A DNA stretch of 28,576 nt. Source: an uncultured Nitrososphaerota archaeon (lineage in GTDB: Archaea > Asgardarchaeota > Njordarchaeia > Njordarchaeales > Panguiarchaeaceae). The position numbers and the translations under genes are program-made. Below the pieces are notes generated by a model. It ran no database searches, was not told the DNA's origin, and worked only from the letters and a program-made list of their open reading frames with translations. Of this stretch, positions 9 to 24,951 are shown piece by piece. The DNA lies in contig CAZWPQ010000028.1 in assembly GCA_964636085.1 (NCBI GenBank), positions 1-28,576 on the forward strand, in the 5' to 3' direction. Numbering within the stretch: the stretch's first letter is position 1; each line of letters opens with the position of its first letter.

Positions 9-3000
9 GAAACATAGAGAATTCCCCAGGAGGGGGTTGAAATACAGGTCGTATTATCTTTCCGTATAACAACACAGATTAGAAACATAGAGAATTCCCC
101 AGGAGGGGGTTGAAATAAAGATGATATGAATGCCGTGACTGTCATAATTGACAAGAGAAACATAGAGAATTCCCCAGGAGGGGGTTGAAATATAAAATCG
201 CCACTTGCTTAAATAAATCCACATCTTCAAGAAACATAGAGAATTCCCCAGGAGGGGGTTGAAATTTGTAATTGGTTTTAATTATCTTTTTTTTGCTTGA
301 TTTTGCGAAACATAGAGAATTCCCCAGGAGGGGGTTGAAATGCTTCTGGTATCATTGCAAGTTTTTTTGCAATTTTGGGGAAACATAGAGAATTCCCCAG
401 GAGGGGGTTGAAATACGAAATCCCTAATCTTTTTGTATCTCGGCAAATTGAATATGAAACATAGAGAATTCCCCAGGAGGGGGTTGAAATAACACACGCT
501 ATACATTGTCCGCTCTCATCTCGCTAATCAGAAACATAGAGAATTCCCCAGGAGGGGGTTGAAATTGCCCTTTATTAGCCGATAATACAGTATTGCCCGT
601 GCTTGAGAAACATAGAGAATTCCCCAGGAGGGGGTTGAAATAGTTTTACTTGGTGCGTCACCGTCTCCGTGTGCGGTGGTGAAACATAGAGAATTCCCCA
701 GGAGGGGGTTGAAATCACCGCCATACGTGCGGGACAAGGACGGAGACGGCAAAAAGGAAGAAACATAGAGAATTCCCCAGGAGGGGGTTGAAATTGCAGG
801 TTTTACGTAAATATTACCACGTTCATAATATTGAAACATAGAGAATTCCCCAGGAGGGGGTTGAAATATGCTAATTATTGAGCTTATTAGTAGAGCTGGT
901 TTTATGGAGAAACATAGAGAATTCCCCAGGAGGGGGTTGAAATGTTCCAAAACGGTTAATCCTAGTAGAATCGCTAGATTTCGAAACATAGAGAATTCCC
1001 CAGGAGGGGGTTGAAATTAGTGTGCTGTTATTTCCATAACTGGATAATCAGTTACTTGAAACATAGAGAATTCCCCAGGAGGGGGTTGAAATAACGTATA
1101 GCGTCTTGTTCTGATGTTGCTGCAATCGTGAAACATAGAGAATTCCCCAGGAGGGGGTTGAAATTACTACCCAAGTTCTTCTAAGTTTCTCCCATAGGTC
1201 GGGGAAACATAGAGAATTCCCCAGGAGGGGGTTGAAATTGATAAACGCTACGCATTATTTGGAGATTGCTAATTTGTGAAACATAGAGAATTCCCCAGGA
1301 GGGGGTTGAAATTTGCAAAATTGCCCGATTCAATCCCTTGATCATCGTATAGAAACATAGAGAATTCCCCAGGAGGGGGTTGAAATTCCATTTGCGTCGC
1401 GCCAGGCAAAATGCTAACCTGACGGAAACATAGAGAATTCCCCAGGAGGGGGTTGAAATCCAGAGCTCATCGGTCTACACCAGCGGTGGCTTTGCATACA
1501 AGAAACATAGAGAATTCCCCAGGAGGGGGTTGAAATATGATGCAGCCTTCTTGGAGGAGCTGTTTTGCTTCTTGGCGAAACATAGAGAATTCCCCAGGAG
1601 GGGGTTGAAATCTTCTTCTCCTTGTCCAGTCTTATTCTCAAAAGAGCTCTCGAAACATAGAGAATTCCCCAGGAGGGGGTTGAAATGGGTCTTTGACATT
1701 AATAGCTATGTCGAGAATGTAGTAGAAACATAGAGAATTCCCCAGGAGGAGGTTGAAATTTTTTGCTTGCATACCGACACCGAATATATTTGTCTATATA
1801 TAATAGAAACATAGAGAATTCCCCAGGAGGGGGTTGAAATATATGTATGATCATCACGATAGTAACTTGCAATATCTTCAGAAACATAGAGAATTCCCCA
1901 GGAGGGGGTTGAAATGCAACAATTTTATTTTCCGCATACAAGAATTAGAGCATCGAAACATAGAGAATTCCCCAGGAGGGGGTTGAAATTTATTTAGTTT
2001 ACTGATACTCATTTTTAGTCACCCCTCTGAAACATAGAGAATTCCCCAGGAGGGGGTTGAAATACCAATTCACCTTCATCTTTGCACATATCTCGGGATC
2101 TGAAACATAGAGAATTCCCCAGGAGGGGGTTGAAATAATATTAGTCTTCCATTATCATACTCCCAGAGGTGCTCTCTCGAAACATAGAGAATTCCCCAGG
2201 AGGGGGTTGAAATTCGGTATGCCCTCGCCTCGCTCATATTTGTTGTACTAATGAGAAACATAGAGAATTCCCCAGGAGGGGGTTGAAATCAACAAGAAGC
2301 AGATAATACTTACTATGCAAGATCCAGGGGAAACATAGAGAATTCCCCAGGAGGGGGTTGAAATAATTTGCAACTCCATAAAATGCAACGAACACTTGGT
2401 CATCGAAACATAGAGAATTCCCCAGGAGGGGTTGAAATTGTTCCATTGCAATTTTAATTAAATTATTTACAAATTCCGAAACATAGAGAATTCCCCAGGA
2501 GGGGGTTGAAATTTCTCTTTAACACACCACCTATCGCCCCAACTCCTTTCCCGAAACATAGAGAATTCCCCAGGAGGGGGTTGAAATATAGTATATAGTA
2601 GCGTAACTCACTCCATACTCCTTCGCCAGAAACATAGAGAATTCCCCAGGAGGGGGTTGAAATCTCATTTACCCTAGATGCTTGGGGCTCCACATCTAGG
2701 GCGAAACATAGAGAATTCCCCAGGAGGGGGTTGAAATACTTTCTTGGCATGTTTGGGTATTCCCTTTATCTTAAAGAAACGAAACATAGAGAATTCCCCA
2801 GGAGGGGGTTGAAATGTATCTTCTGATAAAACTAAGGTTATTGGAACCAGCATGAGAAACATAGAGAATTCCCCAGGAGGGGGTTGAAATATTATCCGAT
2901 ATTGATTATAATGTAATATTAGCTTACGGTCTTGAAACATAGAGAATTCCCCAGGAGGGGGTTGAAATCACTCTAACTACTTCCCACGGATCCGAGAGCG

Positions 3001-3728
3001 TAAGGTAGAAACATAGAGAATTCCCCAGGAGGGGGTTGAAATTATCCTGCTATCGGCTCTTTTCACTCCAGTTATTATGAGGCGAAACATAGAGAATTCC
3101 CCAGGAGGGGGTTGAAATGAAGATCTTGATGCAAATACGTAAGCTTTTTAAAGCATTTTGAAACATAGAGAATTCCCCAGGAGGGGGTTGAAATTAAGAC
3201 CTATTCCCGCACCGTAGAGGTGCAGAGGCTCTTCGAAACATAGAGAATTCCCCAGGAGGGGGTTGAAATTAGAGATGCCAACAAAAGATGCTTGGACGTT
3301 ACGGAGTAAGAAACATAGAGAATTCCCCAGGAGGGGGTTGAAATCTACCAAACCTTGTAGTCACCTGCCTCACTGGTGGAAACAGAAACATAGAGAATTC
3401 CCCAGGAGGGGGTTGAAATTCGGGGAGCGAGTCAGAGAATACTGCAAATCCAAGATACTGAAACATAGAGAATTCCCCAGGAGGGGGTTGAAATATTACA
3501 TCTCCATGAACAATCATATAGTTAGCACTATCATCAGAAACATAGAGAATTCCCCAGGAGGGGGTTGAAATCTCCCCAAAAGGTTTCACCATCCATTCAC
3601 ACCACCCACCCAACAATGAAACATAGAGAATTCCCCAGGAGGGGGTTGAAATTCCCATGACGCTCTACAGAGAAATTCGATCACTAGGTTTAGGAAACAT
3701 AGAGAATTCCCCAGGAGGGGGTTGAAAT
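9..3728 (+). CRISPR. CRISPR array: 50 repeats and 49 complete spacers in the window, truncated by the left window edge
   Basis: 35-bp repeat GAAACATAGAGAATTCCCCAGGAGGGGGTTGAAAT counted 50 times (first 9-43, last 3694-3728). Spacers are 37-46 nt. Orientation is inferred from the 3' TTGAAAT end and a CCCC-AGGA-GGGG hairpin directly followed by an 8-nt tag, GTTGAAAT. Confidence 0.99.
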
Positions 3729-3820: not shown

Positions 3821-4048
3821 TTGGCAAAAACAACAATCACTATTTCCGTTGAAGTTAAGAAGTTCCTAGATGATATGAGAGAAAACAAATCTTGGGAAGA
3901 TTTCCTATTGGAACTAGCTAGGAAAGCAAAATTAGCTGATAAATTATTGGCGTTAGGGGAACTTGAGAGGATATTCACCATGGATGATGCTGAAAAACTT
4001 ATGAAGATTATCGATCGGGTGAAATTAAAGTGGGGGTTGAGAGAATAG
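3821..4048 (+). CDS. vapB: VapB-type antitoxin
   Basis: TTG start at 3821 after a GGTG SD (the ORF track starts at 3779). MAKTTITISVEVKKFL...KSWEDFLLEL fits the archaeal KTITIS..V...L....S....I..L antitoxin pattern, and the gene overlaps the downstream PIN gene. Confidence 0.8.
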   Translation: MAKTTITISVEVKKFLDDMRENKSWEDFLLELARKAKLADKLLALGELERIFTMDDAEKLMKIIDRVKLKWGLRE

Positions 4049-4835: not shown

Positions 4836-5261
4836 AAGTGTTTATTACTTTCTCGTAATCATCTTTGTTATGCTTAAAAATTATCTCTTTACCCTCCTTC
4901 TTCACACAAGTAACATTGGACTCTAAGCCAGAGTGCGCTAGGAAGTTTCTGTCGGATCAACCGCTTGATTTTATCAGGCTGGACAGCGTTGTCCATTTGC
5001 TTTTGCTTTTTCTTCGAGCTTCTTTTTAATTATGTATAGATCGTAACTTATTTTTGCGTTAAGGTCATGTGTACATTTGAATATATTATGATGAGGCTAA
5101 GAGAAGAATACCTAAGATTCTTCATTAATGAACCTATAGAAATGGCTGCAAAGATAGCAGAGAAGGAAAAAAATAGGAGCAATATTCGAGATAACAATAA
5201 CATAGACACAAGGATCATCCATTAAGTTGGTCAGGGGAAGACATAGTCCAGCTATACATCA

Positions 5262-6094: not shown

Positions 6095-6130
6095 ATGTGT
6101 ATTTTATATATTAGAATTTGTGGTGTGTTT

Positions 6131-7552: not shown

Positions 7553-7557
7553 TAATT

Positions 7558-9146: not shown

Positions 9147-9959
9147 ATGCCTATGCTTATCTCTGTAAATCTTAGAGCAACTGAAAAAGCCGAGTTGCCT
9201 CCTTTTACTGGCGAGCATACAAGAGGAATATTTTTCAGCATGATTGCGGGATCAGACTTGGCCATGGTACTCCATGAGAAACCAGGAATAAAACCATATT
9301 CCATAAAGCCACTGCATCCAATAACCGAAAAAATGAATGTAAAAAATAATAGATGGATTATAAGGAAGGATATGAGGCTCTCTTTTGGGATCGGTATCCT
9401 CGATACGGACATCGAGGACAAAATATTGGCGGAGATAGTTTCATCTACAAAAGAAACAATCAAGATTCACCAGGCAACCTTCTATATTGAGAGCTTTGAA
9501 GTCTACAAAAAGAGTAATTATGAGGATCTACTACCAGGATTCACGTCAAGCTTCATAGGTATAATGTTCAAGACACCGACATTTTTCGGTGGACACCATC
9601 CACATCTCTACCCAGATGCAACACATTTATTTACAAATCTGATCAACATATGGAACACCTTTGCGGAGGAGAATATAAAAATAGAAAAGGAGAGCTTCTT
9701 AGGCTGGGTATCGGAGAGAGTCTATATTCGGCATTACAACTTAAAAACGAGAGAAGTAAGAATAAAAGGCTCAAAAATCGTAGGATTCAAGGGCATGGCC
9801 TCATACATAATAATGGATCCAGATCTAGAGGACGCAGAATATCTACTGGGCCTACTCAGACTCGGCCTAATCTCAAATGTAGGGCTAAAAAGAACCTACG
9901 GAATGGGCGTAATAAAAGTATACAACCTAGCAAAAAGACAACCCATCTCCCTGACATAA
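9147..9959 (+). CDS. cas6: CRISPR pre-crRNA processing endoribonuclease Cas6
   Basis: KPYSIKPL, FKTPTFF, GFKGMASY and the C-terminal Gly-rich loop GLISNVGLKRTYGMGVI. Confidence 0.95.
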   Translation: MPMLISVNLRATEKAELPPFTGEHTRGIFFSMIAGSDLAMVLHEKPGIKPYSIKPLHPITEKMNVKNNRWIIRKDMRLSFGIGILDTDIEDKILAEIVSSTKETIKIHQATFYIESFEVYKKSNYEDLLPGFTSSFIGIMFKTPTFFGGHHPHLYPDATHLFTNLINIWNTFAEENIKIEKESFLGWVSERVYIRHYNLKTREVRIKGSKIVGFKGMASYIIMDPDLEDAEYLLGLLRLGLISNVGLKRTYGMGVIKVYNLAKRQPISLT

Positions 9960-12359: not shown

Positions 12360-12500
12360 TTTTGTCGCCTCACTGGTTGGCAAAAGTTTGATACAAAATG
12401 AGGCTTTAAAAAGAGAATATGAATAAAATAATTTCAGAGACGAAATAATGGAATATATTCTATTAAGATAACGCACACATTGCATGAATAGGTAGTATTA

Positions 12501-12863
12501 ATGGGTGTATTTAAGGTTAGGGTTAAGCTCAAGGGAGCAGACAGAGAAGTGGAGAGAGATCTAATAGTGGACAACGGCTCCACCCTCACATGGATCAACA
12601 AGGATATCCTCCAAAGTCTGGGGGCAAAACCAAAAAGAAGAAAGAAATTCATCTTGATTACTGGAGAAAAAGTCGAGAGAGACATCGGGGAAATAACAAT
12701 AGAAATCGACGGCGAGGAGGCAACAATCCCTGTTGTTTTCGCCCTAGAAAACGACAAAGAGATTCTAGGCAACACCGCACTCGAAATCCTCGGTTACGAG
12801 ATAGACCCAATAGAAAAAAAGTTAAAGAAAATAGAGGCAATCCTCACACTACTCTCACAATGA
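12501..12863 (+). CDS. Small clan AA (retropepsin-like) aspartic protease family protein
   Basis: MGVFKVRVKL, LIVDNGSTLTWI (canonical VDTGA), ILGNTALEILGYEIDP; 120 aa. Confidence 0.85.
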   Translation: MGVFKVRVKLKGADREVERDLIVDNGSTLTWINKDILQSLGAKPKRRKKFILITGEKVERDIGEITIEIDGEEATIPVVFALENDKEILGNTALEILGYEIDPIEKKLKKIEAILTLLSQ

Positions 12864-12926
12864 TTTCTTGTGACAAGACCTTCACACATATCCAAAATTA
12901 TGGAAAAATTTTTGATTCGATGGATC

Positions 12927-13871
12927 CTATATTAGTATATTAATTGTGTTGATAACCAAACCAATGATCTCTATTATAGTCTCCTTGCCAAATAAAATAT
13001 TCCGTCGCATTGCAATACGAAGTTTAAATAGGTCACCTAATCGATTTATATTGACATATCCCAACGACCATGATTTATAGGTTGACTTAAACTCAAGCTG
13101 TACATATGTTCTATAAAAACCAATAAGTGCTAACACTCTTGAGATCCTATTCAATATAAAAAATATGAAAAAAATCAAAAATAGCAGAAATTGCAAGTTC
13201 TCTAGCAAATATTCCAAAGAGAATTCAGTTAATGTACACCTTTGTAACAATGCTAACATAAACATCGATATAAGAAAAGAAAAAGTAATATTCTGAAAAT
13301 TCATCACGATGGAAAGAACCCGTAATAAAAAAACATATTTTCTCAATGTATATGCCATAAGCTTGTATTCCAAGTAGGTTATTTTCATTATTAGGAGTAG
13401 GCCTCCAATCAATAGTACGAATCTATAAAGTGCATATGAAATATTTGTTAGAAATGCAAAAATAAGCAAAGAATTTGTAATAAAAAAACAATACAACAAA
13501 TTCTTTCCTACTTTATTCACTTTCTCATTTTTTACTAAGTGGACGAATAGACCCAAATAAAAAACATTAGTAATTCTAAGTAGTATTACATCTATTGATT
13601 CTAGAATGAGAAAAAGAACTAAAAAATAGGAGATAGGCCTAGAGAAAAACATGCTTAGAAATGATATGAAAAATAATATGAAAAAAGAAATAAGGAAAAA
13701 TCTCATAGTACTGTGAACAAAAACTTTGGCAGAAAACGAAAAACAGAGAATATTGTATGTACTTATCTTAAGTGATAAATACAGTAAAGCTGTTAAAAAC
13801 AAAAATATGGCTGCTATGATTGTGTGCATAAATAATATCATACTAAGGCCCAAAATTGTGTATATTGGCAA
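12927..13871 (-). CDS. Polytopic membrane protein, unknown function
   Basis: 314 aa with roughly 7-8 hydrophobic segments by eye; AT-rich; start uncertain (frame open up to 13928). Confidence 0.65.
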   Translation of the reverse strand: MPIYTILGLSMILFMHTIIAAIFLFLTALLYLSLKISTYNILCFSFSAKVFVHSTMRFFLISFFILFFISFLSMFFSRPISYFLVLFLILESIDVILLRITNVFYLGLFVHLVKNEKVNKVGKNLLYCFFITNSLLIFAFLTNISYALYRFVLLIGGLLLIMKITYLEYKLMAYTLRKYVFLLRVLSIVMNFQNITFSFLISMFMLALLQRCTLTEFSLEYLLENLQFLLFLIFFIFFILNRISRVLALIGFYRTYVQLEFKSTYKSWSLGYVNINRLGDLFKLRIAMRRNILFGKETIIEIIGLVINTINILI

Positions 13872-13931
13872 GATGAATAATTTTAAAGTTGTTTTGTCTC
13901 GCGATATTTTGATGGATACCGAGATTTGTCA

Positions 13932-15338
13932 TCACCAAATTGAAATATTTTTTGATATCTCCAAGATCACATTTAAAAAATATCTTCCTATTAAATCATT
14001 GTTTTTGGTAAATTTTATGCGACTTTCCAAGACACTTAGAAGTATTATTATCTCAGATATATCATGAAAAAAGGGGTTTTCCACGACAGACATTAGCAGT
14101 AGAGTTGTTAGTATATAGTCAAAGGCAGTTAACGAATCAAAATTTGACAACACCTCCTTAAAATCTGTATCCTTAAGAAATAAAAGGATTAGATAGAAAA
14201 ATATAGAAAGTGATAAATTTGCAACAATATATTGAATTATATTATCTTGGTTCGTGGCTAACAATAGAGTTACAGAAAGCATTACTAGAAATATACTTAA
14301 TCTTTTATAGCGAACTGGCGATTGAAGAAAAACAAACGACAATGCAATATATCTCAATAAGCTATTTTCAAGATCCTTAATAGTAAGCTTTGAGCCATTT
14401 CTTCCAAAGGAAGACTTTTTATTATTTTGATCCATATAGAAGTATACAAAGGGTATAAAGAATGTCTCATCCAACGTAGACAGTATTAAAGATATGAAGA
14501 ATGAAACACTAATAAGTACATAGGGGCTAATAATCCCGTTCTGGGATTTTGAAATATTATTACCAAATATTTTCTTTATAAACACAACTAGCGTACCATA
14601 TATAGACATCTCCAACAGTATTGTGTAGAAAAGAAAATCATCTGTTTCAACCCTACTAATTTTTAAAAGTTTTCCAACAAGCAGATTTATAATGTTAAGA
14701 ATCGCTGCACTAACTAGAACCCTATTTATTGCATCGATAAACTCGTTTGTATCTTTGAGATATTTAATGTTAACATTTCTCAGAGTTGAGTAAACAGAAA
14801 TGACTTCTCTGTAAAAAATACTATAAAGCATTAGATAAAATGAAAGCACTGTCAATTCATCAAGATAATGTATCGAATCAATATTGATTCTAATAAACTC
14901 AATAAGTTTTCCTTTCCTAAGTGTCTGACAGGTCTTCTCTATAATCATCCTAATTTTTTCATAATTTAATCTGACACCATTCAAGGATATAAATACTCTA
15001 TCCAATACTGATTTGATAAGATTAATAATACCTTTTTTCCTATTTGGATAAAACTGGCGAATTAGAACGGGAATATCTCTTATTTCCTCGCCAATGCCAA
15101 GATCCTTCGCTACCTCTGATTCATATTTCCTACTCATGTACTCTGAGACTATAGTGATTATTTTATGGCCATATCGGTATATACCACTAGCATCTATATC
15201 ATAAGATATACATTCTAGAAGACGACATTCCGTACCACCTCTAATGTACTTATAGTACCCTTTTTCTTGGAGACCCTCCTTAAAAGCTTCATATTTGAAT
15301 TCACCCTTTTGCACAATTTTTACTAATTCATCTAACAA
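13932..15338 (-). CDS. Unknown protein with a soluble N-terminal domain and multiple C-terminal TM segments
   Basis: 468 aa: charged first ~160 aa, then alternating hydrophobic helices. Immediately downstream of and co-oriented with cmr1. Frame is open up to 15404, overlapping the cmr1 stop. Confidence 0.7.
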   Translation of the reverse strand: MLDELVKIVQKGEFKYEAFKEGLQEKGYYKYIRGGTECRLLECISYDIDASGIYRYGHKIITIVSEYMSRKYESEVAKDLGIGEEIRDIPVLIRQFYPNRKKGIINLIKSVLDRVFISLNGVRLNYEKIRMIIEKTCQTLRKGKLIEFIRINIDSIHYLDELTVLSFYLMLYSIFYREVISVYSTLRNVNIKYLKDTNEFIDAINRVLVSAAILNIINLLVGKLLKISRVETDDFLFYTILLEMSIYGTLVVFIKKIFGNNISKSQNGIISPYVLISVSFFISLILSTLDETFFIPFVYFYMDQNNKKSSFGRNGSKLTIKDLENSLLRYIALSFVFLQSPVRYKRLSIFLVMLSVTLLLATNQDNIIQYIVANLSLSIFFYLILLFLKDTDFKEVLSNFDSLTAFDYILTTLLLMSVVENPFFHDISEIIILLSVLESRIKFTKNNDLIGRYFLNVILEISKNISIW

Positions 15339-15391: not shown

Positions 15392-16690
15392 TTAAAGAAT
15401 CGATCTATATTCCCCTTCCGATAGCCAATCATTTACCTTTTTAGCGACCCTGATTAATAATTCCTCATTTATCCTTATAACACGTTTTGTTGCTCCAATC
15501 CAACGTATGGCCGAGGGCCAATCTAAGGACACCATGTGGCTTATAATTATGTAGTTTCTATTGTTTTGTCTAGATACCTTTACCCACAGGGGGCTTGCTC
15601 TTCTAATTTGACCCACGTATCCTTTTCCTCGTTGTTCTCTAGGTAGGCCTAGATACCAAGCTGAGGGAGGATTCATATATCTTAGAAAACTAGCCAAACT
15701 ATTTCGCCGTGTTCTTAAAAATATGCTCTCTATATCTCTAAATACGTTGTTGATATCATTATCTTGCTCCTTGATCCATACCGAAAATATTGGTAAATCA
15801 TCGATCTTTGATAGCGATATCGAGGGAATTGCTGGTAGTTTTCTCCTTATTTTCTGATTACTCTCTTGACCCAGAAGTCCACGAATATTTTTGATAATAT
15901 ATAATATTCTGTCCTTAAACATCATATCTCTCAAGCTCTTTAGATCTTCCAAGTTTTTGTCTATATACTGAGATTCCCAATAATCTATATCAAAGCAACC
16001 CAATCCACGCCTAGAAATTTTTCCTATACCACCCAACTCAATCGCTAGCAATGTCCCTAACACACCAATTTTGTCTCGATAGTCCATTTTTATGGCCGCC
16101 GTGTATATTGTTAATTCCATTTTGTATTGTGATATCATTGTATCATACAATGTGTTTGTAAGTCTAATAACAGCATCCCTTACGGTGCTAGGATGTCCGC
16201 GCCTGTTTTCTATATAGTTTCTTACGGCTTGGTACTCGGGCATATTTCCTATTTTTTCTTTGAGCAAATAGCTCTCGCTACATAATTGATCTAGATATTC
16301 ATAGAATTTCTTGACGTTTCTATAAAACTTACCTTCCGGTACTCTGCGTTGGGCACTATGTGCCCTCATGAATATTAGTCTAAGTCTAAAATGGCTAATT
16401 CCTTGAGGTTTAGATGTTTCTATCAGTTTTATCTGATATTTGATCCTAGATGGCTTTGGTTCCCCTCCGCCGGTTGCAACACCACCAAATATTTCTGATA
16501 CCCTATTTATGGCCTCATTTATTTCTTTGCCTTGGTCATAAGCCCACCCAGCTATTGCCGCTCTAGTCCACCACCTCACTACTCCTCTTAGGCTTGTGCC
16601 TCTTGGGTATCGATCTGCAAAAGTGTCAAATCTACCTATAGATGCGGGGGTTGTTGGGAGTAGGGTTATTTTTGCCAGCTTCTTCAACAT
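15392..16690 (-). CDS. cmr1: Type III-B RAMP Cmr1
   Basis: RGTSLRGVVRWWTRA, EIFGG, LGGIGKISRRGLGCF, YLGLPR, RRASPLW. Confidence 0.95.
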   Translation of the reverse strand: MLKKLAKITLLPTTPASIGRFDTFADRYPRGTSLRGVVRWWTRAAIAGWAYDQGKEINEAINRVSEIFGGVATGGGEPKPSRIKYQIKLIETSKPQGISHFRLRLIFMRAHSAQRRVPEGKFYRNVKKFYEYLDQLCSESYLLKEKIGNMPEYQAVRNYIENRRGHPSTVRDAVIRLTNTLYDTMISQYKMELTIYTAAIKMDYRDKIGVLGTLLAIELGGIGKISRRGLGCFDIDYWESQYIDKNLEDLKSLRDMMFKDRILYIIKNIRGLLGQESNQKIRRKLPAIPSISLSKIDDLPIFSVWIKEQDNDINNVFRDIESIFLRTRRNSLASFLRYMNPPSAWYLGLPREQRGKGYVGQIRRASPLWVKVSRQNNRNYIIISHMVSLDWPSAIRWIGATKRVIRINEELLIRVAKKVNDWLSEGEYRSIL

Positions 16691-17583
16691 AGCTCACCAT
16701 ATTCAATAACTTCGAAGATACCATAACCAGAAGATGTTTTGGCTCCAATGCCAATCTTGTTGAAGGTATAATCTAGGATATTTCTTATTGATGTTTCTAA
16801 TTCTATTCTAAGAATATCCTGTAATACTTGAACTCCATTCCTAAACTCGATTTTTAGATCACCGAACACTCTTCTTCTTGTTTCCCTATTGCTTAGGATT
16901 CTTCTTAGTCTTGGACTATCTATAATCAGTAGGAATTTGAATTTGACTCCAGGCGGGATTACTAGAAAGTGAACAGGGGTTGGCTTCACTTCCCACTCGG
17001 TTATTTTCTCGGTATATATGGGTAATATCACATCACGATCAATCAGCTTGTCCTCTTTATCTACTGGATATGCATCGGTTATAGATACCAAGGACATATG
17101 CATTTTTTCTTTTTGTTCCGAGCCGAACAAGACATCCCTTAGTTTTTGTATGTCCTTAGGAACTTCTTCCTTGTTTATAGCATATTTAAACTGTATTGCC
17201 GCTGACATGGCGCCCTTAATCTGGGAGCTAGGAATTAATACTGTATCAAGTATAGGATCCCAGTCTATACCTACTTCATCTATGAGCCATCCCATGGGTC
17301 CATTGACATTTATTATTACTCGGCTAGCAGATCTTATAGTTACTTCTATCGCATCCTTGTTGGTCATTCTCACCATTCGCTTCAATAGTTCGAAATATCG
17401 TCTATTTCGATTCAGTATTTCAGATGACAGGTCTTCTATTGTCCTTACGAGCCAATTAAGGATGTCATTTTTATATTTGACTTTTTCTTCATCTAATTTA
17501 TTTTCATCCTGAATTGAGGTGAGTTCTAGGAGTTTTTTCCTTACTAATAATATGTACTCCTCATAGATGCTTCTCGACTGCAT
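16684..17583 (-). CDS. cmr6: Type III-B RAMP Cmr6
   Basis: EVGIDWDPILDTVLIPSSQIKGAM, LFGS, TDAYP, KPTPVHFL, GIGAKTSSGYG. ATG 17583 follows GGTGA (the ORF track starts at 17595). Confidence 0.95.
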   Translation of the reverse strand: MQSRSIYEEYILLVRKKLLELTSIQDENKLDEEKVKYKNDILNWLVRTIEDLSSEILNRNRRYFELLKRMVRMTNKDAIEVTIRSASRVIINVNGPMGWLIDEVGIDWDPILDTVLIPSSQIKGAMSAAIQFKYAINKEEVPKDIQKLRDVLFGSEQKEKMHMSLVSITDAYPVDKEDKLIDRDVILPIYTEKITEWEVKPTPVHFLVIPPGVKFKFLLIIDSPRLRRILSNRETRRRVFGDLKIEFRNGVQVLQDILRIELETSIRNILDYTFNKIGIGAKTSSGYGIFEVIEYGELC

Positions 17584-17584
17584 A

Positions 17585-19087
17585 CTAATCACCATAAGAC
17601 CTAACTATATACTTTAGCTTTGTCAAGAGATCTATTATAAAACTCAGATTCATTAGGTACTGAGATATCTTATCGTCCCTAATGTAGCCATCGTCCCCAA
17701 CAACTTCTTTGGGATCTATATAGTGCATAGTTATCCACTTAATGGTATTTCTAACCTCACTATACCCAACACCACTTGCAGTACTCTTTAATATATCGTA
17801 GAACAGCATTACAGAAACGGTATCGAGTAACCTGAATCTCTCGGGGAGACCCGAGAATTTGCCTTTTAAGATCGAAGACTTCTCCCTTATTTCCTCCACC
17901 AACTCACTAAGGGAAACAGATTCCTCCTCTATCAGCAATGTATTCTTTATCGCATCTAATAGTTCAACGATACTTGGGTATGATCTAACTAACGGAGTTG
18001 ATGCCTTTTTCGTCTCATATTTCCCAGCCAACTCTGGCGGTTTTATCTTTGGATACAGAAGCGCTACTAGCCCTCTTGATAGAGTCTCCTTTCCCCCCAA
18101 GAATAGAGCCCCGGCATACTTACTGAATATTCTCTTAATGCACTCTGTATCGATCATTAAGCATTTCTCGCCTTTGAATTCAATGATTATTTTATCACAC
18201 ACAGTCGTCAAGTCTCCAAGTAAGCTTCTCATATTCTTTTCCCCAGAATCATCTACAAGAACATACTTTAGGGGTATCTTTGTCCTTGTGATGGCTATCT
18301 TGGAGATAAAAATGGATAAGGCATGTATTTCCTCCTCGAACCTTGGCCCTTGTTTGGATACAACTTTCTCATAAACATCAAGGTACTCTCCCTTGCTATC
18401 TTCCTTTTCGAAGCCCTTTATCTTTATTCCCGGTCTTATTGTTATGGCTTTTTCTAGGACGACGTCAAATATTTCATCACTTACGACACCTATTTTCACA
18501 CCACCTAATATTTGCTCTATATCCCTCCAGAGTTCCCCTAGAGAATCAGTTAATAGTTTTCTAATTACACCAACAAGTTCTAAATGAAAAACCTTTAGAG
18601 TTACACCTCCAACTATATTTATCTTCTTTACTTCACGCGCCATATTGGGATCCATAACTATGTTATCTGATAGCGAATTTGCATACAGACTATTTACCAA
18701 GACCGATACCACTTCACTTTTTACGCCAAGATATGACATAAATCTATTCAATCTGCTTGGGGACGTCAGATATATTACACCAACTGTGGAAGATACGGGG
18801 ATAAAAACTAGATGTGCATCATAGACAGCCACTAAGCCCATGTGTGGCATAATTTTTTCTTCAGCCACCTCGGCCGTGCCGAAGAGAAAGTCTACTAGAG
18901 CCTTGTTCCCTGTTGTAAGATAAACCTTGCTCCTTAGTGCCCCCTTTAGACTTGTTGAAGGGATTATTATATTGTTGAATAGATCCCGCATTAATGGTAT
19001 ATCCGTAACATTGGCTACAGACTGTCCACTAGCCACCCTCATGTTGGTTATGTTGACTAGTAATATGGGGATCTGATCCTTATACAT
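17585..19087 (-). CDS. cmr4: Second Cmr4 (Cas7) paralog fused to a C-terminal Cmr5-like (Cas11) helical domain
   Basis: ATG 19087 follows GGAGG, 2 nt after the cmr5 stop; 500 aa. Cmr4 motifs VTDIPLMRD, IIPSTSLKGALR, FLFG, DAHLVFIPVSS, TSPSRL, VVSDEIF, FEEEI, LFLGGKETLSRG. These are followed by a ~150-aa linker plus helical extension containing FSGLPERFRLLDTVSVMLFY and YL....IIDLLTKLKYIVRS. Confidence 0.85.
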   Translation of the reverse strand: MYKDQIPILLVNITNMRVASGQSVANVTDIPLMRDLFNNIIIPSTSLKGALRSKVYLTTGNKALVDFLFGTAEVAEEKIMPHMGLVAVYDAHLVFIPVSSTVGVIYLTSPSRLNRFMSYLGVKSEVVSVLVNSLYANSLSDNIVMDPNMAREVKKINIVGGVTLKVFHLELVGVIRKLLTDSLGELWRDIEQILGGVKIGVVSDEIFDVVLEKAITIRPGIKIKGFEKEDSKGEYLDVYEKVVSKQGPRFEEEIHALSIFISKIAITRTKIPLKYVLVDDSGEKNMRSLLGDLTTVCDKIIIEFKGEKCLMIDTECIKRIFSKYAGALFLGGKETLSRGLVALLYPKIKPPELAGKYETKKASTPLVRSYPSIVELLDAIKNTLLIEEESVSLSELVEEIREKSSILKGKFSGLPERFRLLDTVSVMLFYDILKSTASGVGYSEVRNTIKWITMHYIDPKEVVGDDGYIRDDKISQYLMNLSFIIDLLTKLKYIVRSYGD

Positions 19088-19089
19088 GC

Positions 19090-19545
19090 TTATTCCTCCC
19101 TTAAATATGATTCTAATATCCTTGACAATGTATCCAGACATTGAATAATCTTTTGTTCCAGGATATCAATATTGCCCAATTCTCCCCTATGAAGTTTATC
19201 GAGAAGGACTAGAAGGTCTATTTCTTTCTTAGAGGGATCAATACAATCGCTAAAATACTCGTTTATAAGTATACCAGTGACTATGGCCCATCTCATAGAA
19301 TCATTTAGGCTTCTCTCCTTTATGTTTATGTTTGATATATATACGTTTATATTGACGATTTTTGCCTTGCTAAAAGCGAATAATATTGACCTAACGAGCC
19401 CGTCGGACATTATCATATTCGACATCCTCTTCGCATAATTAGATAGTTTTTTTAAGTCATCCTTATCAAGATTTTTTATGGAATTGACATATTTATTTAG
19501 CCTCTTCGCAACATCCAAGTCGACATAAATCACCAATATAGACAC
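19090..19545 (-). CDS. cmr5: Type III-B small subunit Cmr5 (Cas11)
   Basis: 151 aa, helical; NYAKRMSNMIMSDGLVRSILFAFSK matches the Cmr5 pattern; directly after cmr4. Exact start uncertain. Confidence 0.88.
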   Translation of the reverse strand: MSILVIYVDLDVAKRLNKYVNSIKNLDKDDLKKLSNYAKRMSNMIMSDGLVRSILFAFSKAKIVNINVYISNINIKERSLNDSMRWAIVTGILINEYFSDCIDPSKKEIDLLVLLDKLHRGELGNIDILEQKIIQCLDTLSRILESYLREE

Positions 19546-20439
19546 CTAGTAGAATTTTATCCTCAAAAAGCCCCTACCAACACTCTCGTCGCCTCCAAGG
19601 TTTATGAGTTTCTTATCGAACAGATCCATCAATCTCTTAACAGGATCTCCATGTTTTTTAGCCCGTTGAGACACGAGAACTGCAGTGAAGAAAATGCTGT
19701 ATTCGGGCAATAGCTCTTGGAAGAACAGGGCACCAGTCTCCGCGGTCTTTGTTTCTGGCACTATCCTTATCCTAGCAACCCTGAACAGAGCCCTATTTGA
19801 GATACGCATGAATGATTCATCAGAAACAATCACTAGAGCCTTCTTTATTTTCGTCAAGAGGTAATCATAGCCAGGAACATCAACCTTAACTACTTCACTC
19901 AACTTCTTTATTAGGTTTGAGAGATCCATTTTCTTTATTTTAAATCTAAACGAAGCATTTGCTAGGTATAAATATTCCCCATCCCCTGCAGGGAACGATT
20001 TATCCACAGTTGCCTCTCCATCTGACAACCCATATAGACCAGACAGATCAAATCCCAATTCCTCCCCCTTCATATGTAGGAGCCTTGAAAAATCGGCTAG
20101 TTGACTTGGTGACGTAACAAAAACATAACTATAGAAATTTGAGTGTACTGGAAGCAACAATATTTTTAGGTTCAAAAAGGATACTGCACCTATTCTATTC
20201 TCGTCTCCGAATATCCAATTGATTTCATTTTTAAGCGAATCGTCCTCTGCTATTAGACTGAGATGATTTCTCAAAGCACCTTTTAAACTTGTTGAGTATA
20301 TTTCTGGGACATTTGTAGTAACGTTTCTCTGTAACCTCAGATCAATCGTGCCCACCCCTCTTTCTGAACCAACATATACAGGGGACTCAGCCCAAAAAAT
20401 TAAAATCTTCTCAACTTTATATCCAACATTAGCAGCCAT
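19546..20439 (-). CDS. cmr4: Type III-B RAMP Cmr4 (Cas7 backbone RNase)
   Basis: SPVYVGS..GTIDLRLQR, STSLKGALR, LLLPVHS, VTSPSQL, IVSDESF, RIRI..ETKT..GALFFQELLP, NLGGDESVGRG (the ORF track starts at 20448). Confidence 0.96.
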   Translation of the reverse strand: MAANVGYKVEKILIFWAESPVYVGSERGVGTIDLRLQRNVTTNVPEIYSTSLKGALRNHLSLIAEDDSLKNEINWIFGDENRIGAVSFLNLKILLLPVHSNFYSYVFVTSPSQLADFSRLLHMKGEELGFDLSGLYGLSDGEATVDKSFPAGDGEYLYLANASFRFKIKKMDLSNLIKKLSEVVKVDVPGYDYLLTKIKKALVIVSDESFMRISNRALFRVARIRIVPETKTAETGALFFQELLPEYSIFFTAVLVSQRAKKHGDPVKRLMDLFDKKLINLGGDESVGRGFLRIKFY

Positions 20440-20441
20440 AC

Positions 20442-21620
20442 CTACCACCTCCCCAATAGAGCCGAACCGAAAATATTTGAATATTCTTTCTCAACATAGC
20501 TACGCTCGAAGACATTAATTTTGACACCAACATCAAAATAAAAAACAGAACCATAACCTGCTCCATATAGAGTCTTCCTTCTAGATCCCTCCGCAAGAGA
20601 CCATCCGCTCACCAAATCCTCAACAATCATAAATCCGCTAAGGCCCTCTATCGATGGATAAACATAGTTCTTCTCAAAAATACAGGAGGAGGTTAAAACA
20701 AGCTTTACCATTTCTTTTATGGATATGGTGAATTCCTTCTCCTCCTCTAGTATTTTTACATCATTAATCTTCCTTACATGAACAAGCCCACCTTCGCCCC
20801 CAAGCCTTAAAATTTTGTCGTCTAGCGCGTTGGATATTTTCTCCGCAATTTCGTTCCGCTCTGTATGTATAGCGAAAAATATTGACCACCCCTTTTTAAA
20901 CCAAACCTTTTCAACAATATAGTATAAGCCCTTAAGGTAGCCCTCATGTGTTAGGCCATATTTTACTTTCTTTTTGAAGGGATCCAACGATACTCCAACA
21001 GTCGCTTTCTTTTTAGCGACTTCATCTACATTTACAATATTGTTATTTCTAGATCCAAGATCTACCTCGAGAGAGTAGGGATTATTTAAGTACTCCTTCA
21101 TAAGATCCGTGGATATCACGTATTCTCCTCTTATTCCAGAGACTTTTGTCTCCTCATCCCTCATTATTTCCATCATATTTGCTCGATATGCAACCTGAAG
21201 AGGAGTAAAGCGGTCATCATCAAAAGAATCACAAAAGGCTCTTCTTAAACCTCTTAGCTTATCTAGGAAATCCCGCACTTTTAATAAAAAAATTTTTTCC
21301 CCGACTCTGACAAGATCTAGGGGGACTGGATAATATACATTATGATTTTCCATATCTACTATATAGGGCCCTATAAGTACCCAGTCCATTCCACAGTAAT
21401 TTTTCCTGTCCCCTAGAAGCTCCTTGTATTGTTCCCATTTTGATGGATCAAACGAATACTGACTACTCAAAAACTCCATTATTGCCATTCTTATCATACC
21501 AGATACTGTGGAAGGAGGAGGTAATGGATAGTGCGTAGGGGCGTATCCCCCATATTTATAGGGTTGCGGTTTCCCAAAAACGAGGGGAGTTAATGGCTCA
21601 GCCATAAACTTGATTATCAT
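20442..21620 (-). CDS. cmr3: Type III-B Cmr3 (Cas5 group)
   Basis: EPLTPLVFGKPQP, PLPPPSTVSGMIR, GPY, YYPVPLD, LRLGGEGG, SGWSL, GSVFYF. ATG at 21620 overlaps the cas10 stop (the ORF track starts at 21635). Confidence 0.95.
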   Translation of the reverse strand: MIIKFMAEPLTPLVFGKPQPYKYGGYAPTHYPLPPPSTVSGMIRMAIMEFLSSQYSFDPSKWEQYKELLGDRKNYCGMDWVLIGPYIVDMENHNVYYPVPLDLVRVGEKIFLLKVRDFLDKLRGLRRAFCDSFDDDRFTPLQVAYRANMMEIMRDEETKVSGIRGEYVISTDLMKEYLNNPYSLEVDLGSRNNNIVNVDEVAKKKATVGVSLDPFKKKVKYGLTHEGYLKGLYYIVEKVWFKKGWSIFFAIHTERNEIAEKISNALDDKILRLGGEGGLVHVRKINDVKILEEEKEFTISIKEMVKLVLTSSCIFEKNYVYPSIEGLSGFMIVEDLVSGWSLAEGSRRKTLYGAGYGSVFYFDVGVKINVFERSYVEKEYSNIFGSALLGRW

Positions 21621-24600
21621 GATACATCCCTCCATAAAACTGATTTAGAAAGCACCCTAAATAGGATATTACACAGAATTGGTATGTCCTTAAGTTTCGG
21701 CTCTGTCCGTATAAGACAGCATAATTCATGAGCTAGATTTCGAGCCAACTTTGTGTTTTCTTTAGAATCTTGCTTAGTAGCTCTCCTCGATACCTCCCTA
21801 ATAAGTACTCTTTCCATGGCGTCAAATCCATCCTCGTCCCTAAGTTCAAGAATGCCAGATTTGTCTTCGATAAGCTTACCAGAGATAAGTTCATGGAATT
21901 CTAATAGATCATGTATCAGCCTTCTGGAGAGTCTACCGTTTAGGACATTATATATTATTCTTAGGGCGAACTCCATCGGCATGAATATGTTATAAAGAGA
22001 GACCACTGATGATTCCTCGGATAATGTTGCAAACTTATGATCGATATCTGGATATATTCCCTTGAATCCACTCATCTCTGTTAGCAAACGATCTACAATG
22101 TTAATGTAACCGTAAACATCTAGGTGATCCCTTATCCGCCTAATGAGTTTTTGATCCATAGTTCTTATATACTCAAACCTACATGTATTTTCCTCATCAC
22201 CAATTTCTTTACAGCCAATAAGTACATTAGGAAGAGCCGCCTTGTATAAAATCCCACCTCTAGATGCTATGGCTATACATAGTCCGTCCTTAGTCTCGAT
22301 AATCTTATTTTCAAGACTCGTTCTCATCTTCTTCGCACAATTTTCCAAAAGTTCTCTTGTGGATTCAATTGCTAGTCTAAAGTTGAACTTGGGGTCAGCA
22401 ATAAATATTCCAAAGGAATTTGAGGCCCTCCACCCCATGCCCATAACATTTAGTCTATTATTATGGTAATCCATAAGGAGATATTCTCTAGAGAATGTCA
22501 ATCTTAGCAAAATATATACCAGATGAGTAACTTCTGGAGGTAGGATCGCCAAGACGTCATCTCCCCCGGTGTAGATCAAAAACCCACCAAATGCATCGAT
22601 TATTTTTTTGATTAAAATACTATTGCTCGAAATTATTGCAGAGATATTTGAGAGAATTGCTGGCGAAAGAGGAATAGGCATTGAGAAGATATGCTTATTT
22701 TCTATAACAGTATCATTCTTAATAATAGATTTCAGATAACCATTTCTCGCATAGAACAAGATCAGTGATGGGAGCATTGAGCCAGATATCCATTTTCCAA
22801 TATTATCGCCATCAGCCATTAGAATCGTGAAGTAATCCGAGGGGGCAGACGTTATGGGCACACCTATCTTCTCTATTATTTTATGAAAATCTGTAAATGG
22901 GGCCAACAGATCTCTAATTCTTTTAATGATGAATTCCGCCAAAGAGCTTTTATCAACATTGCTTAGAACTTCTTCGAACTTTTTATAACATTTTATCAGT
23001 TTATCAAGATCTCCAGTGAGTTTTTCTATTTTATCAATCAATTCTCTCGACTTCTCATCTAGAGAACCCTTATTTTTCAGTGCATTGATAAGTTCATGTA
23101 TTTCATCTTTGGCCCTCTCAAGAAATGCTTTGTCTAGTACTTCGCCTGATAACTTAAGGAAATCACATATATATTGACCCTCAGTTCCTATATCTTCCCA
23201 CATCTTAAAAAATACTCCACTACGACAGAATTCTCCTAGCGTAGAGAGAATTTTATTATATTTTACGAGATCATCCTCAGATTCGACGATTTTTGATATA
23301 TTACCCCTTAAGTTTGAAACAATTTTACATATCTCTCCTACCAAGCCTAAAAATTCCTTGATTATATCTTCTAGGAGACTCTTATCTAACTTAAATGTGG
23401 CATAGATCATAGTTTTAAACCACATTATGCTCATATCTGACGTGCTTGGGATCGATAGAAATTTTTTCTTTATATCCTTCTTAAAATATTCTCTGAAGAA
23501 GATATCTATTCCATACCTGAAGATTCTTTTGATAAAACCGACTGAGCAAAGTTTTTCTAAATAATCTATTGTGGAGCCAGGAATATCCCAGAATTCTTCC
23601 CAATCGATGTTTATTGCATTTCTAATACCACATGTGCTACATAAATCCCCAGTGGTATCGCCCGAGATGACATAATTTCTTCTTAATCGCCTATATTTGC
23701 TTATCATTAGTGCATATTGCATTGCCCTTATCAACATGGCCAAGTTTCTAAGTGGTACTTTTCTTGGGTATTGTATTATGTCAGGGTGGCTACTTATAAA
23801 CCTCTCAATTTCCTTTAGGCCTATCGCCTCATTTATTTCATTACATACCAATCGGATAGATTCATCCAATATCTCGAGATCACCGTTCTCAGAAATCCTG
23901 CCCTTAATACCAACTAGTCTTACGCTCCCAAATACATCCTCAAACTCTAATTTTTCAATGGACTCTTCGATCTTATCGAGCAGTTGGATTGTGTACTCAT
24001 CGGCACCACTGGATTTAAGCCACCTCTCAAATCCATGTACTGTTGCGATTTTTATCTTATTCCAACACTCCTTCATTTCATATAGTATGTGTTCTCTAAT
24101 CTCCTTGAGTGACCTAAATTTGTCCGTAGGTATCATGAAAATAAAGGTGTTGGGTATAACAGGAAGCAGAAGATATTCCTCCTCTGTATTCTCCTTGAAA
24201 ATGATGCCACGAGCAAGTGGTATTGCTGGTAGCCAAGGCATGATTATGTGATCTGGGCCGTACTCGTCGACTATAGATTTTATACCACTAAAGCTTATGA
24301 GAGACATAATATAGCTCGAGGTCCAAAGGTCTACGGTTTTTTTGGAGTTTTTAATGAAATCTTGAACACCACCAATATCCACTATAGCGATCCAGAACTC
24401 TCTACCTTTCTGTATAATCGTGGCTAGTGCACTTGTCATCTGTAGATGTGCCATTATTGGGGACGATGGCGTTCGAGTGTCCTCTGGTAGGTACAATATC
24501 CACCTAGCCACATCCCTGTAGTTACTTATGTATGGGGTATAATAATAGTTGTATAGATTGGCTAAGAGGTCGTAAAATAGCTCTTTTCTGTCGCCTATTT

Positions 24601-24868
24601 CTTTTAAGAAAATCCTTGGCATGTTATTGATATCTTTAAATTGGTCTATATCTTTGCTAAACAATAGAGCCCCCGACAAGGGATGTAATATTTGTAAGTA
24701 ATTTACACTACCCTTTATAATAAGCATTCTATTAGATGCTGAGGCATTATTATCAGATTCGCTAATAATTTTTTCAAAGTTCGTTTTGGGCGCATGATGA
24801 TTTTTTATCCCACCCAAGATAATGTCTCCAAGGCCTAATTGCTCGGCGATGCGAACAGCTCTCTCCAC
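21617..24868 (-). CDS. cas10: Cas10/Cmr2 large subunit (main ORF; the true 5' end lies upstream across a frameshift)
   Basis: NHH..SDNNASASNR (HD-domain C-terminal part), LPEDTR.P..I.AHL..TSALA, DIGGVQDFI..SKKTVDLWTSSY, PNTF, CSTCG, MADGDNIG, IYTGGDDVLA. Confidence 0.97.
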   Translation of the reverse strand: MERAVRIAEQLGLGDIILGGIKNHHAPKTNFEKIISESDNNASASNRMLIIKGSVNYLQILHPLSGALLFSKDIDQFKDINNMPRIFLKEIGDRKELFYDLLANLYNYYYTPYISNYRDVARWILYLPEDTRTPSSPIMAHLQMTSALATIIQKGREFWIAIVDIGGVQDFIKNSKKTVDLWTSSYIMSLISFSGIKSIVDEYGPDHIIMPWLPAIPLARGIIFKENTEEEYLLLPVIPNTFIFMIPTDKFRSLKEIREHILYEMKECWNKIKIATVHGFERWLKSSGADEYTIQLLDKIEESIEKLEFEDVFGSVRLVGIKGRISENGDLEILDESIRLVCNEINEAIGLKEIERFISSHPDIIQYPRKVPLRNLAMLIRAMQYALMISKYRRLRRNYVISGDTTGDLCSTCGIRNAINIDWEEFWDIPGSTIDYLEKLCSVGFIKRIFRYGIDIFFREYFKKDIKKKFLSIPSTSDMSIMWFKTMIYATFKLDKSLLEDIIKEFLGLVGEICKIVSNLRGNISKIVESEDDLVKYNKILSTLGEFCRSGVFFKMWEDIGTEGQYICDFLKLSGEVLDKAFLERAKDEIHELINALKNKGSLDEKSRELIDKIEKLTGDLDKLIKCYKKFEEVLSNVDKSSLAEFIIKRIRDLLAPFTDFHKIIEKIGVPITSAPSDYFTILMADGDNIGKWISGSMLPSLILFYARNGYLKSIIKNDTVIENKHIFSMPIPLSPAILSNISAIISSNSILIKKIIDAFGGFLIYTGGDDVLAILPPEVTHLVYILLRLTFSREYLLMDYHNNRLNVMGMGWRASNSFGIFIADPKFNFRLAIESTRELLENCAKKMRTSLENKIIETKDGLCIAIASRGGILYKAALPNVLIGCKEIGDEENTCRFEYIRTMDQKLIRRIRDHLDVYGYINIVDRLLTEMSGFKGIYPDIDHKFATLSEESSVVSLYNIFMPMEFALRIIYNVLNGRLSRRLIHDLLEFHELISGKLIEDKSGILELRDEDGFDAMERVLIREVSRRATKQDSKENTKLARNLAHELCCLIRTEPKLKDIPILCNILFRVLSKSVLWRDVS

Positions 24869-24894
24869 ATGATTCGAATAATTTAATGCCTTGT

Positions 24895-24951
24895 CTATAG
24901 GATCGTAAAAATGGAAGAGATCTTTATATCCCAGTAATCATGTCCACTCAA
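24895..24951 (-). other. cas10: Out-of-frame 5' fragment of cas10 (MSGHDYWDIKISSIF...)
   Basis: AGGTGG SD, TTG at 24951, 18 codons, then TAG. Adding one base at the T5 run (24907-24911) joins it to [Y/H]DPIDKALNYSNHVERA, the typical Cmr2 start W..KI...LHDP..KAL. Confidence 0.85.

Follow-up and report, generated by a model that had tools for sequence, protein, structure and literature searches.

A type III-B operon with a second, fused Cmr4–Cmr5 pair

The window analysed here is a stretch of 28,576 nucleotides (nt), contig CAZWPQ010000028.1 of GenBank assembly GCA_964636085.1, from an uncultured archaeon that GTDB places in the Njordarchaeales of the Asgardarchaeota and NCBI labels Nitrososphaerota. 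Its minus strand carries an effector operon of a CRISPR system in the order cas10-cmr3-cmr4-cmr5-fusion-cmr6-cmr1, in which the fusion is a single gene of 500 amino acids (aa) joining a Cmr4 domain to a Cmr5-like domain. Cmr4-type and Cmr5-type domains each occur twice among its products, the second of each sharing one chain. All of its genes lie on the minus strand. cas10 (cmr2; 21617..24951) scores 144.9 bits with TIGR02577 (cut-off 79.4), aligns with seven relatives and is followed by cmr3, the Cas5 subunit (20442..21635), which passes Pfam (PF09700, 92.1 bits) and falls below the TIGR cut-off (TIGR01888, 68 bits against 100). The stand-alone cmr4 (19546..20439; 297 aa; TIGR02580 166.8 bits, cut-off 87) and cmr5 (19090..19545; about 150 aa; TIGR01881 41.5 bits, cut-off 27.9) are called Cmr4a and Cmr5a; the Cmr5a profile also matches the solved Cmr5 structures 4gkf and 6s6b. 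The fusion consists of a second Cmr4 domain, Cmr4b (residues 1-346; 18050..19087), a linker (residues 347-391; 17915..18049) of low model confidence and variable length and sequence, and a diverged Cmr5/Cas11 domain, Cmr5b (residues 392-500 and the stop; 17585..17914). cmr6 (16684..17583; TIGR01898 83.2 bits, above the cut-off) starts 1 nt past the fusion stop, and cmr1 (15392..16690; TIGR01894 30.5 bits, cut-off 28.65) closes the operon.

The Cas10 belongs to the Cmr2 family and has the GGDD motif, which is present in all eight aligned sequences, and cmr1, cmr3, cmr4, cmr5 and cmr6 all lie in one operon. Judged by its Cas10, its set of subunits and the descent of its Cmr4, the system is assigned to type III-B, from which it appears to depart only in the rule of one gene per filament.

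The fusion is one continuous, conserved reading frame

Exactly 2 nt (GC) separate the cmr5 stop, ending at 19090, from the fusion ATG at 19087, and the frame runs on to a TAG at 17585 (1503 nt). This bears out a first-pass annotation of the DNA, made from the letters alone, which had described a normal cmr4 and cmr5 followed 2 nt later by a 500-aa frame; its span of 20439-17585 agrees with ours. Programs that call open reading frames place the start 18 codons upstream (19141, 518 aa), inside cmr5; homologues start at the Met equivalent to 19087. The Pro/Lys stretch that had been described as a linker was located at residues 346-356, and the linker is disordered in the full-length model, with a predicted local distance difference test (pLDDT) score below 50 at residues 349-396. 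The distance from the glycine-rich loop (G-loop) of Cmr4b to the Leu-Pro motif is 55-89 residues in 15 homologues and 171 in one. At the related locus L044 the linker is 100 residues longer.

The absence of a stop between the domains, also claimed at first pass, holds beyond this assembly. Contigs of two hydrothermal-vent sequencing runs, either of which may be the source sample of this genome, cross the linker with no differences, one of them covering the whole gene, and two further assemblies encode an identical fusion protein. A start for a separate Cas11 chain was sought in the linker, which offers only TTG and GTG codons, with no clear ribosome-binding site and no ATG. In the scorable pairs the ratio of nonsynonymous to synonymous substitution lay at 0.08-0.23 in Cmr4b and at 0.13-0.28 in the fused Cas11, indicating that both domains are under purifying selection. 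An assembly artefact or a dying pseudogene, in which loss of a stop joined two genes by error or drift, would find some encouragement in the two frames of one relative (G004) and in the damage to other cas genes of this genome. We give this explanation a negligible chance, however: 16 distinct loci are fused, the gene is unbroken in both runs and both further assemblies, selection on both domains is purifying, and the break in G004 is a scaffold gap of 10 N within the linker.

The fusion joins a Cmr4 domain to a Cmr5-like domain

The first ~350 aa had been said to carry Cmr4 motifs including the G-loop, and this was confirmed: residues 7-341 match TIGR02580 at 96.2 bits, above its cut-off of 87, and the G-loop lies at residues 330-339. 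Models of Csm3 or of the III-D Cas7 reach at most 36 bits, against 96 for Cmr4. The predicted structure of the domain aligns with P. furiosus Cmr4 (4w8w) at Z 21.5 and a root-mean-square deviation (rmsd) of 2.9 over 242 aligned residues, compared with Z 10.7 for III-D. Identity with the adjacent Cmr4a is 33% over 129 residues, in keeping with the earlier description of the copies as highly diverged; the age proposed at first pass is upheld as well.

The C-terminal domain is harder to recognise. Taken alone, the domain of this protein matches nothing in the Pfam, NCBIfam or PADLOC models, a feature search of the ESM Atlas returned nothing at 0.9, and hmmsearch of solved-structure sequences with its profile retrieved no Cmr5. 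The family is more informative. PADLOC Cmr5 models match up to six of the 16 homologous C-domains (best E 4e-5), and hhalign of 15 fused C-domains against 25 canonical Asgard Cmr5 gives a probability of 92.4% (E 5e-7, 116 columns) with both conserved Cmr5 blocks in register, while seven control alignments from the same operons reach at most 3.5%. Gly409, Pro415, Tyr430, Lys434, Gly441 and Lys492 are invariant in the fused C-domains.

Structural comparison leads to the same family. Because the C-domain folded alone gave a poor model (pLDDT 59, predicted template modelling score (pTM) 0.37) and uninformative fold searches (best Z 4.6, Csm2 4.2, Cmr5 3.6), the full-length model was required (pLDDT 67, pTM 0.70). 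The likeness to Cas11 that the first-pass annotation had proposed to look for was found there: residues 392-500 align with Cmr5 from P. furiosus (4gkf; Z 8.1, rmsd 3.4, 101 aligned), with chain F of DtCmr, labelled D. thermophilum (9arw; Z 8.1), and with Cmr5 from T. thermophilus (2zop; Z 7.8, rmsd 3.0) and A. fulgidus (2oeb; Z 7.3, rmsd 3.0), and with Csm2 at Z 6.8. The best unrelated helical chain has Z 7.1 over 81 residues; for helical bundles a Z of 7-8 is of middling strength, and the weight lies in four crystal or electron microscopy chains of Cmr5 standing among the top five. Profile and model agree that the C-domain is Cmr5-like. The Cmr5 domain proposed at first pass is thus borne out by homologue profiles and structure, both blocks being present (411-430 and 477-497), though not by the sequence of this protein taken alone, which matches no model. 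Neither of the two outcomes named at first pass as refuting the reading, a C-domain unlike Cas11 and a stop between the domains, was observed.

Conservation and hosts of the fusion

A search for homologous loci, also suggested at first pass, recovered 15 further distinct full-length fused homologues, which have lengths of 463-558 residues and share 25-44% identity with this protein. Throughout the 16 distinct loci the fusion stands between cmr5 and cmr6 in an identical gene order wherever the contig reaches, cmr4a or cmr5a is never lost where the contig covers them, and Cas10 is full length (about 1100 aa). Hosts, by record label, are a Jordarchaeales bin, a Promethearchaeati bin (this genome's own order) and two with less specific labels, so that every host with an assignable position belongs to the Asgard archaea. 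It occurs in 6 of 400 genomes of the same phylum, the fusion being spread over three families and two orders; it is absent from the four congeners examined (75-81% complete), and just one Cmr4–Cmr5 pair is present at each of the roughly 30 further III-B loci inspected in Asgard archaea. This patchy spread suggests that the operon was transferred sideways among hosts.

No unfused second pair was found among 1.84 billion representatives (8 matches, all of 470-523 aa), in the 400 genomes of the phylum or in metagenome contigs (10 loci, all fused), in searches that did not cover other phyla genome by genome and whose word-based step missed known members, so that unfused forms may exist. Two candidates were set aside. 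G004 looked like a split gene; its downstream frame opens at the scaffold gap, is linker-like there and has no start, and because the break is a run of 10 N and the second frame lacks a start, we counted it as a probable fusion. A 185-aa protein (P0028) that looked like a stand-alone domain is cut by a contig end.

Relation to known type III systems

With canonical III-B systems (P. furiosus, T. thermophilus, A. fulgidus and the S. islandicus Cmr-α and Cmr-β) the operon shares the subunit set, the Cmr4 and Cmr5 folds, the catalytic Asp and GGDD, as well as the HD motif (in relatives), Cas6, an array and a nearby HerA. Canonical III-B, however, has one gene each for the homo-polymeric Cmr4 and Cmr5, whereas the genes here encode two diverged copies of each, the second pair fused. 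Type III-B is further marked by RNA cleavage at 6-nt steps under the guidance of CRISPR RNA and by the synthesis of cyclic oligonucleotides. Cmr6 and Cmr1 are themselves specialised Cas7 paralogues, non-catalytic caps without a Cas11. The fusion differs from them in retaining the catalytic Asp and carrying a Cas11. Type III-C has a diverged Cas10 (Csx11) with an inactive cyclase, and the Cmr2-family Cas10 with GGDD sets the present system apart from it.

The first-pass annotation had called Cas7–Cas11 fusion the hallmark of type III-E. The feature is not confined to III-E, as such fusions are also found in III-I and III-Dv (PMC12669027, PMC11026444). The III-E Cas7-11e (gRAMP) and the III-I Cas7-11i likewise place a Cas7 before a Cas11 in one chain, and our fusion model aligns over both domains with the first 364 residues of Cas7-11 (7wah; Z 8.8, rmsd 7.6). 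These proteins, however, have three or four Cas7 per chain, derive from III-D, and occur where Cas10 is missing or degenerate (PMC12669027); in the present operon one Cas7 of the Cmr4 family is fused, and Cas10, Cas5 and the other Cas7s remain separate. Type III-E proper uses a single effector of four Cas7 domains and one Cas11, and has neither Cas10 nor Cas5. III-Dv/III-D2 of Synechocystis (Cas7-Cas5-Cas11 and Cas7-2x) also has partial fusions, flexible linkers, a retained Cas10 and position-specific subunits, and is the closest working model of a fixed-length complex with separately mutable sites (PMC11026444). It belongs to the III-D lineage (Csm3-like Cas7, Csx19), has Cas5 inside the fusion and has no repeating subunit, in contrast to the Cmr lineage of the present system, whose stand-alone pair probably still repeats.

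The independence from III-E that had been proposed is upheld by the Cmr4 membership of the N-domain, seen in bit score, structure and tree alike, and by the derivation of III-E and III-I from III-D (PMC12669027). The operon thus represents an independent Cas7–Cas11 fusion in III-B, an apparently undescribed variant of III-B and not a III-E system. We found no description of it in full-text literature searches, the 2014 archaeal survey, the main text of the 2025 classification or the 2026 Asgard defence survey. The described Cas7–Cas11 fusions (III-E, III-I and III-Dv/D2) are all III-D-derived, and a fusion in III-B shows that the step is convergent. It also appears to be caught early here, one repeat unit having been duplicated, specialised and tethered while the rest is canonical. 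Automatic annotation overlooks the Cas11 domain and labels such loci ordinary III-B.

The fusion keeps residues of the cleavage site

In solved Cmr complexes, n+1 copies of Cmr4 and n copies of Cmr5 form paired filaments around the CRISPR RNA (crRNA); the thumb of each Cmr4 flips out every sixth base, its Asp cleaves the target in steps of 6 nt, and the Cmr5 opposite contributes basic and acidic side chains (10.1101/2020.06.24.163345). In P. furiosus Cmr4 this Asp, D26, is essential, and the canonical His is dispensable for cleavage (PMC4333402). D26 maps to Asp33 in Cmr4a and to Asp29 in the fusion (codon 19003-19001); the residue is kept in 16 of 16 fusions and invariant in both Cmr4 groups. 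Cmr4a has a canonical thumb and G-loop, with Asn90 in place of P. furiosus Asp86, and Cmr4b a longer, differently conserved thumb and an eroded G-loop. Cmr4b has lost a thumb Arg, a thumb Leu and a Gly of the G-loop that Cmr4a retains, whereas the opposite face (Lys48, Gly49, Arg52, Phe69 and Gly70) is kept in both. The equivalent of D86 is found in 88% of Cmr4b against 47% of Cmr4a, and that of S. islandicus Cmr5 K145 in all fused Cas11 domains (Lys492), while it is mostly lost in Cmr5a; in Cas11 an acidic residue also aligns with E39. On these alignments, residues that help catalysis seem better retained in the fusion than in the stand-alone copies.

This pattern bears on whether the fusion sits in the complex as a cap, structural or regulatory, with little or no cutting of its own, or whether its Cas11 mainly relays target binding to Cas10. 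In many Cmr4b the canonical His and Gly pattern has gone from the loop preceding the Asp, the thumb is remodelled, and the Cas11 domain lies below detection by library models, all of which would suit such a role. We nevertheless consider it improbable, given that the catalytic Asp is invariant across 25-45% identity and that the D86 and K145 equivalents are kept. The loss of the canonical His says little here, since that residue is unnecessary for cleavage (PMC4333402) and has gone from Cmr4a as well.

A predicted seat for the fusion next to Cmr6

The pairing of the two filaments has one exception: the Cas10-proximal Cmr4 pairs with the last domain of Cas10 and not with Cmr5, and in Cmr-β each Cmr4 except the Cas10-proximal one pairs with a Cmr5 (10.1101/2020.06.24.163345). 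Because only the Cas10-proximal Cmr4 goes without a Cmr5, a Cmr4 bearing its own Cmr5 suits a distal seat. A model of three chains (Cmr4a, Cmr6 and the Cmr4b domain) scored 0.82, against 0.62 for the best of three controls. The pass mark was attained by 58 of 80 complexes of solved structure but by just 2 of 110 mismatched pairs. The runs agreed on at least 75% of contacts, and the pLDDT of the partners was at least 73. Cmr4b was placed centrally and head to tail, touching both chains, with its tightest contacts on Cmr6 and its altered G-loop within the modelled interface. The informative part of the model, as we read it, is which paralogue meets Cmr6.

The heteromeric backbone with position-specific subunits proposed at first pass is thus a prediction backed by the computed model and the motif pattern. 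Model, gene order and the Cmr4/Cmr5 pairing rule together suggest that a single fused subunit occupies the final seat next to Cmr6. We think it somewhat more probable than an even chance that this is a III-B complex with a mixed backbone, in which that subunit provides the last cleavage site and brings the filament to its end. From the observed gene content, folds and conservation we infer the incorporation of the fusion, its seat, copy number, activity and control of length as follows. Starting at the Cmr3/Cas10 end, Cmr4a and Cmr5a would occupy the repeating positions. A single fusion chain would then take the last position, with its conserved face on Cmr4a and its changed face on Cmr6, bringing its own tethered Cas11 and forming an active cleavage site at the Cmr6 end. 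The fusion would terminate the filament, for example at a stoichiometry of two to three Cmr4a, one to two Cmr5a and one fusion, and with the filament so ended, the lengths of the complex and the crRNA would therefore be better fixed. The precedent is III-Dv, in which non-repeating fused subunits accompany one fixed crRNA length (PMC11026444).

Several points weigh against this arrangement. The three-chain model contained no RNA, Cmr3, Cmr5 or fused Cas11 domain, and its score covers one order of the paralogues. Its pass may reflect likeness to solved Cmr4–Cmr4 and Cmr4–Cmr6 contacts, and what it shows is likeness, not binding. The residue equivalences in Cas11 come from alignments at 10-15% identity. 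Finally, the frame of cas10 appears to be shifted near its 5' end, as described below, and this copy may therefore be partly impaired.

Two other uses of the fusion within the backbone were weighed. It might self-polymerise as a Cas7–Cas11 repeat, or swap randomly with Cmr4a and Cmr5a, giving varied length or specificity and, for example, escape from anti-CRISPR proteins. In favour, the fusion comprises a complete repeat unit, catalytic Asp and helper residues included, and the gene dosage in the operon is 1:1. Yet the thumb and G-loop of Cmr4b, which face the next subunit, have lost residues that are invariant in self-polymerising Cmr4; the stand-alone genes, whose loss would be expected if the fusion sufficed, persist at every covered position of the 16 loci; and the n+1:n rule demands one Cmr4 without a Cmr5. 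We judge either form unlikely. More doubtful still, and with little to recommend it in our view, is a seat at the first backbone position by Cmr3 and Cas10, where the Cas11 of the fusion would replace or double the last domain of Cas10. III-Dv does have a Cas7-Cas5-Cas11 fusion at its proximal end (PMC11026444), and Cmr3 was not among the modelled chains, leaving that seat not on offer; but, given Cmr4a and Cmr6, the model set Cmr4b between them, and the full-length Cas10 (about 1100 aa) retains the last domain that serves the proximal Cmr4 in solved Cmr.

The terminal seat next to Cmr6 also allows a bolder version, which we hold only tentatively and well below even odds: the fusion would be both the filament end that fixes length and the most complete active site, Cmr4a and Cmr5a having partly decayed to a scaffold, and cutting would occur mainly at one addressable site. 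If true, this would be an independent start, within III-B, on the road from multi-subunit to fused effectors, would deserve a named subtype variant, and would give a natural template for tethering Cas7 to Cas11 in Cmr. The system makes it possible to test how polymerisation of Cmr4 and Cmr5 is halted, and with it how crRNA length is set. A site encoded by a separate gene can be mutated independently of the others, and the contribution of each cleavage site thereby also becomes testable in one complex.

Origin of the second pair

In a 77-row Cmr4 tree (LG+C20), the stand-alone copies group in one clade (100/97) and the fused copies in a second (100/100), with 97/89 support for a sister relationship between them. 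Nearest to both are canonical archaeal Cmr4 from Pyrobaculum, from Saccharolobus and from three Asgard loci. The stem of the fused clade is three-fold longer than the stand-alone one (1.49 against 0.47), and subgroups match between the Cmr4a and Cmr4b clades. A single old origin of the fusion and its joint inheritance with the stand-alone copy are well supported by these trees.

The duplication proposed at first pass is favoured by the sister grouping and remains dependent on the model. With 45 rows and LG+G4 the sister support drops to 71/70, and approximately unbiased (AU) tests do not reject a grouping of either copy with canonical neighbours (p 0.07 and 0.41). The fused Cas11 profile matches the Cmr5a profile of the same operons at 1-3%, and because the profiles barely match, a common origin of the two Cas11 types is not established. 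The competing account, in which a different III-B operon within this archaeal clade donated the second pair before it was fused, concerns origin only. It can appeal to these AU tests, which leave Cmr4b or Cmr4a with canonical archaeal Cmr4, to the long branches of both copies, which could attract, and to the far better match of the fused Cas11 to canonical Cmr5 (92%) than to its operon neighbour (1%). Against it, the best-fitting mixture model joins both copies at 97/89, and the tandem cmr4-cmr5-cmr4-cmr5 is the order left by duplication. On balance we favour duplication within the operon by roughly two to one, and regard uptake as the less probable course. A tandem duplication of cmr4-cmr5 would have been followed by loss of the stop in the second pair and its fast divergence; afterwards the operon as a whole would have been stably inherited and passed sideways between Asgard archaea of hot environments. 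One genome of the same order has a canonical cmr4-cmr5-cmr1 arrangement (L013, at G006:C220), and its Cmr4 falls in the clade nearest both duplicated copies; this is a candidate for the state before duplication.

Cas10 and neighbouring genes

The long frame of cas10 is open over 24937-21617 and is called from a GTG at 24868 (1083 aa), with GGDD intact. The true start is probably a TTG at 24951 behind GGTGG, in a different frame, and translation from there resembles the N-termini of relatives. An apparent 1-nt deletion in a T run (24911-24907) falls on the His codon of the Cas10 HD motif, a motif that varies within III-B but is retained by all six relatives whose 5' end is complete; cas10 is intact at the related loci L014, L030, L035 and L044. 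The frameshift could stem from an error of assembly or from genuine loss of the DNase motif. Damage in this genome leaves the finding of the fusion intact, because that finding rests on the family.

The CRISPR array (9..3728, plus strand) has 50 repeats of 35 nt with spacers of 37-46 nt (mode 40), runs off the contig start and is followed after its last repeat by an AT-rich stretch. cas6 (9147..9959, plus strand; PF10040 50.7 bits; PADLOC Cas6) likely encodes the enzyme that processes crRNA from this array. A 485-aa gene without a known family, herA and then cas6 follow one another from 6095-9102 (plus strand) onwards; the best PADLOC models for herA include the type III-associated HerA, and the 485-aa gene occupies the usual place of nurA with no match to a NurA model. 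No second Cmr operon was found in this genome. A type I locus lies elsewhere in it (G000:C70), with cas1 and, by sequence, cas4, cas7, cas5, cas8 and cas3.

A remnant of a Csx1 HEPN gene with two stops (4873-5040, minus strand; PF09455 47 bits) lies beside a toxin-antitoxin pair of MazE-like/PIN type (5940-5262) and a further PIN gene (4030-4452), and no intact csx1 with PF09455 was found in this genome. Among relatives, L014 has an intact Csx1 beside the operon, and L044 has a CARF (APE2256) gene before cas10 (1174-1920); a lone CARF gene of the present genome (C64:4350-5075) is 45% identical to the latter. L044 also has a second Cmr1-like gene of 508 aa (12108-13631, minus strand), facing the operon's cmr1 on the opposite strand.

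After cmr1 lie two hydrophobic genes of low GC content (28-29%), of 468 aa and 314 aa (15338-12927, minus strand), with no family or Atlas match; they are possible accessory or membrane effectors. The locus L035 has two genes of similar size and character in the same place (11723-13948), with no detectable similarity to this pair. Three further minus-strand genes are unrelated to the fusion: a surface-type protein with a beta-helix and TSP3 repeats (12485-10125), an Ig-domain protein (26142-25210) and an archaeal ATPase with a weak nuclease-like tail (27673-26291).

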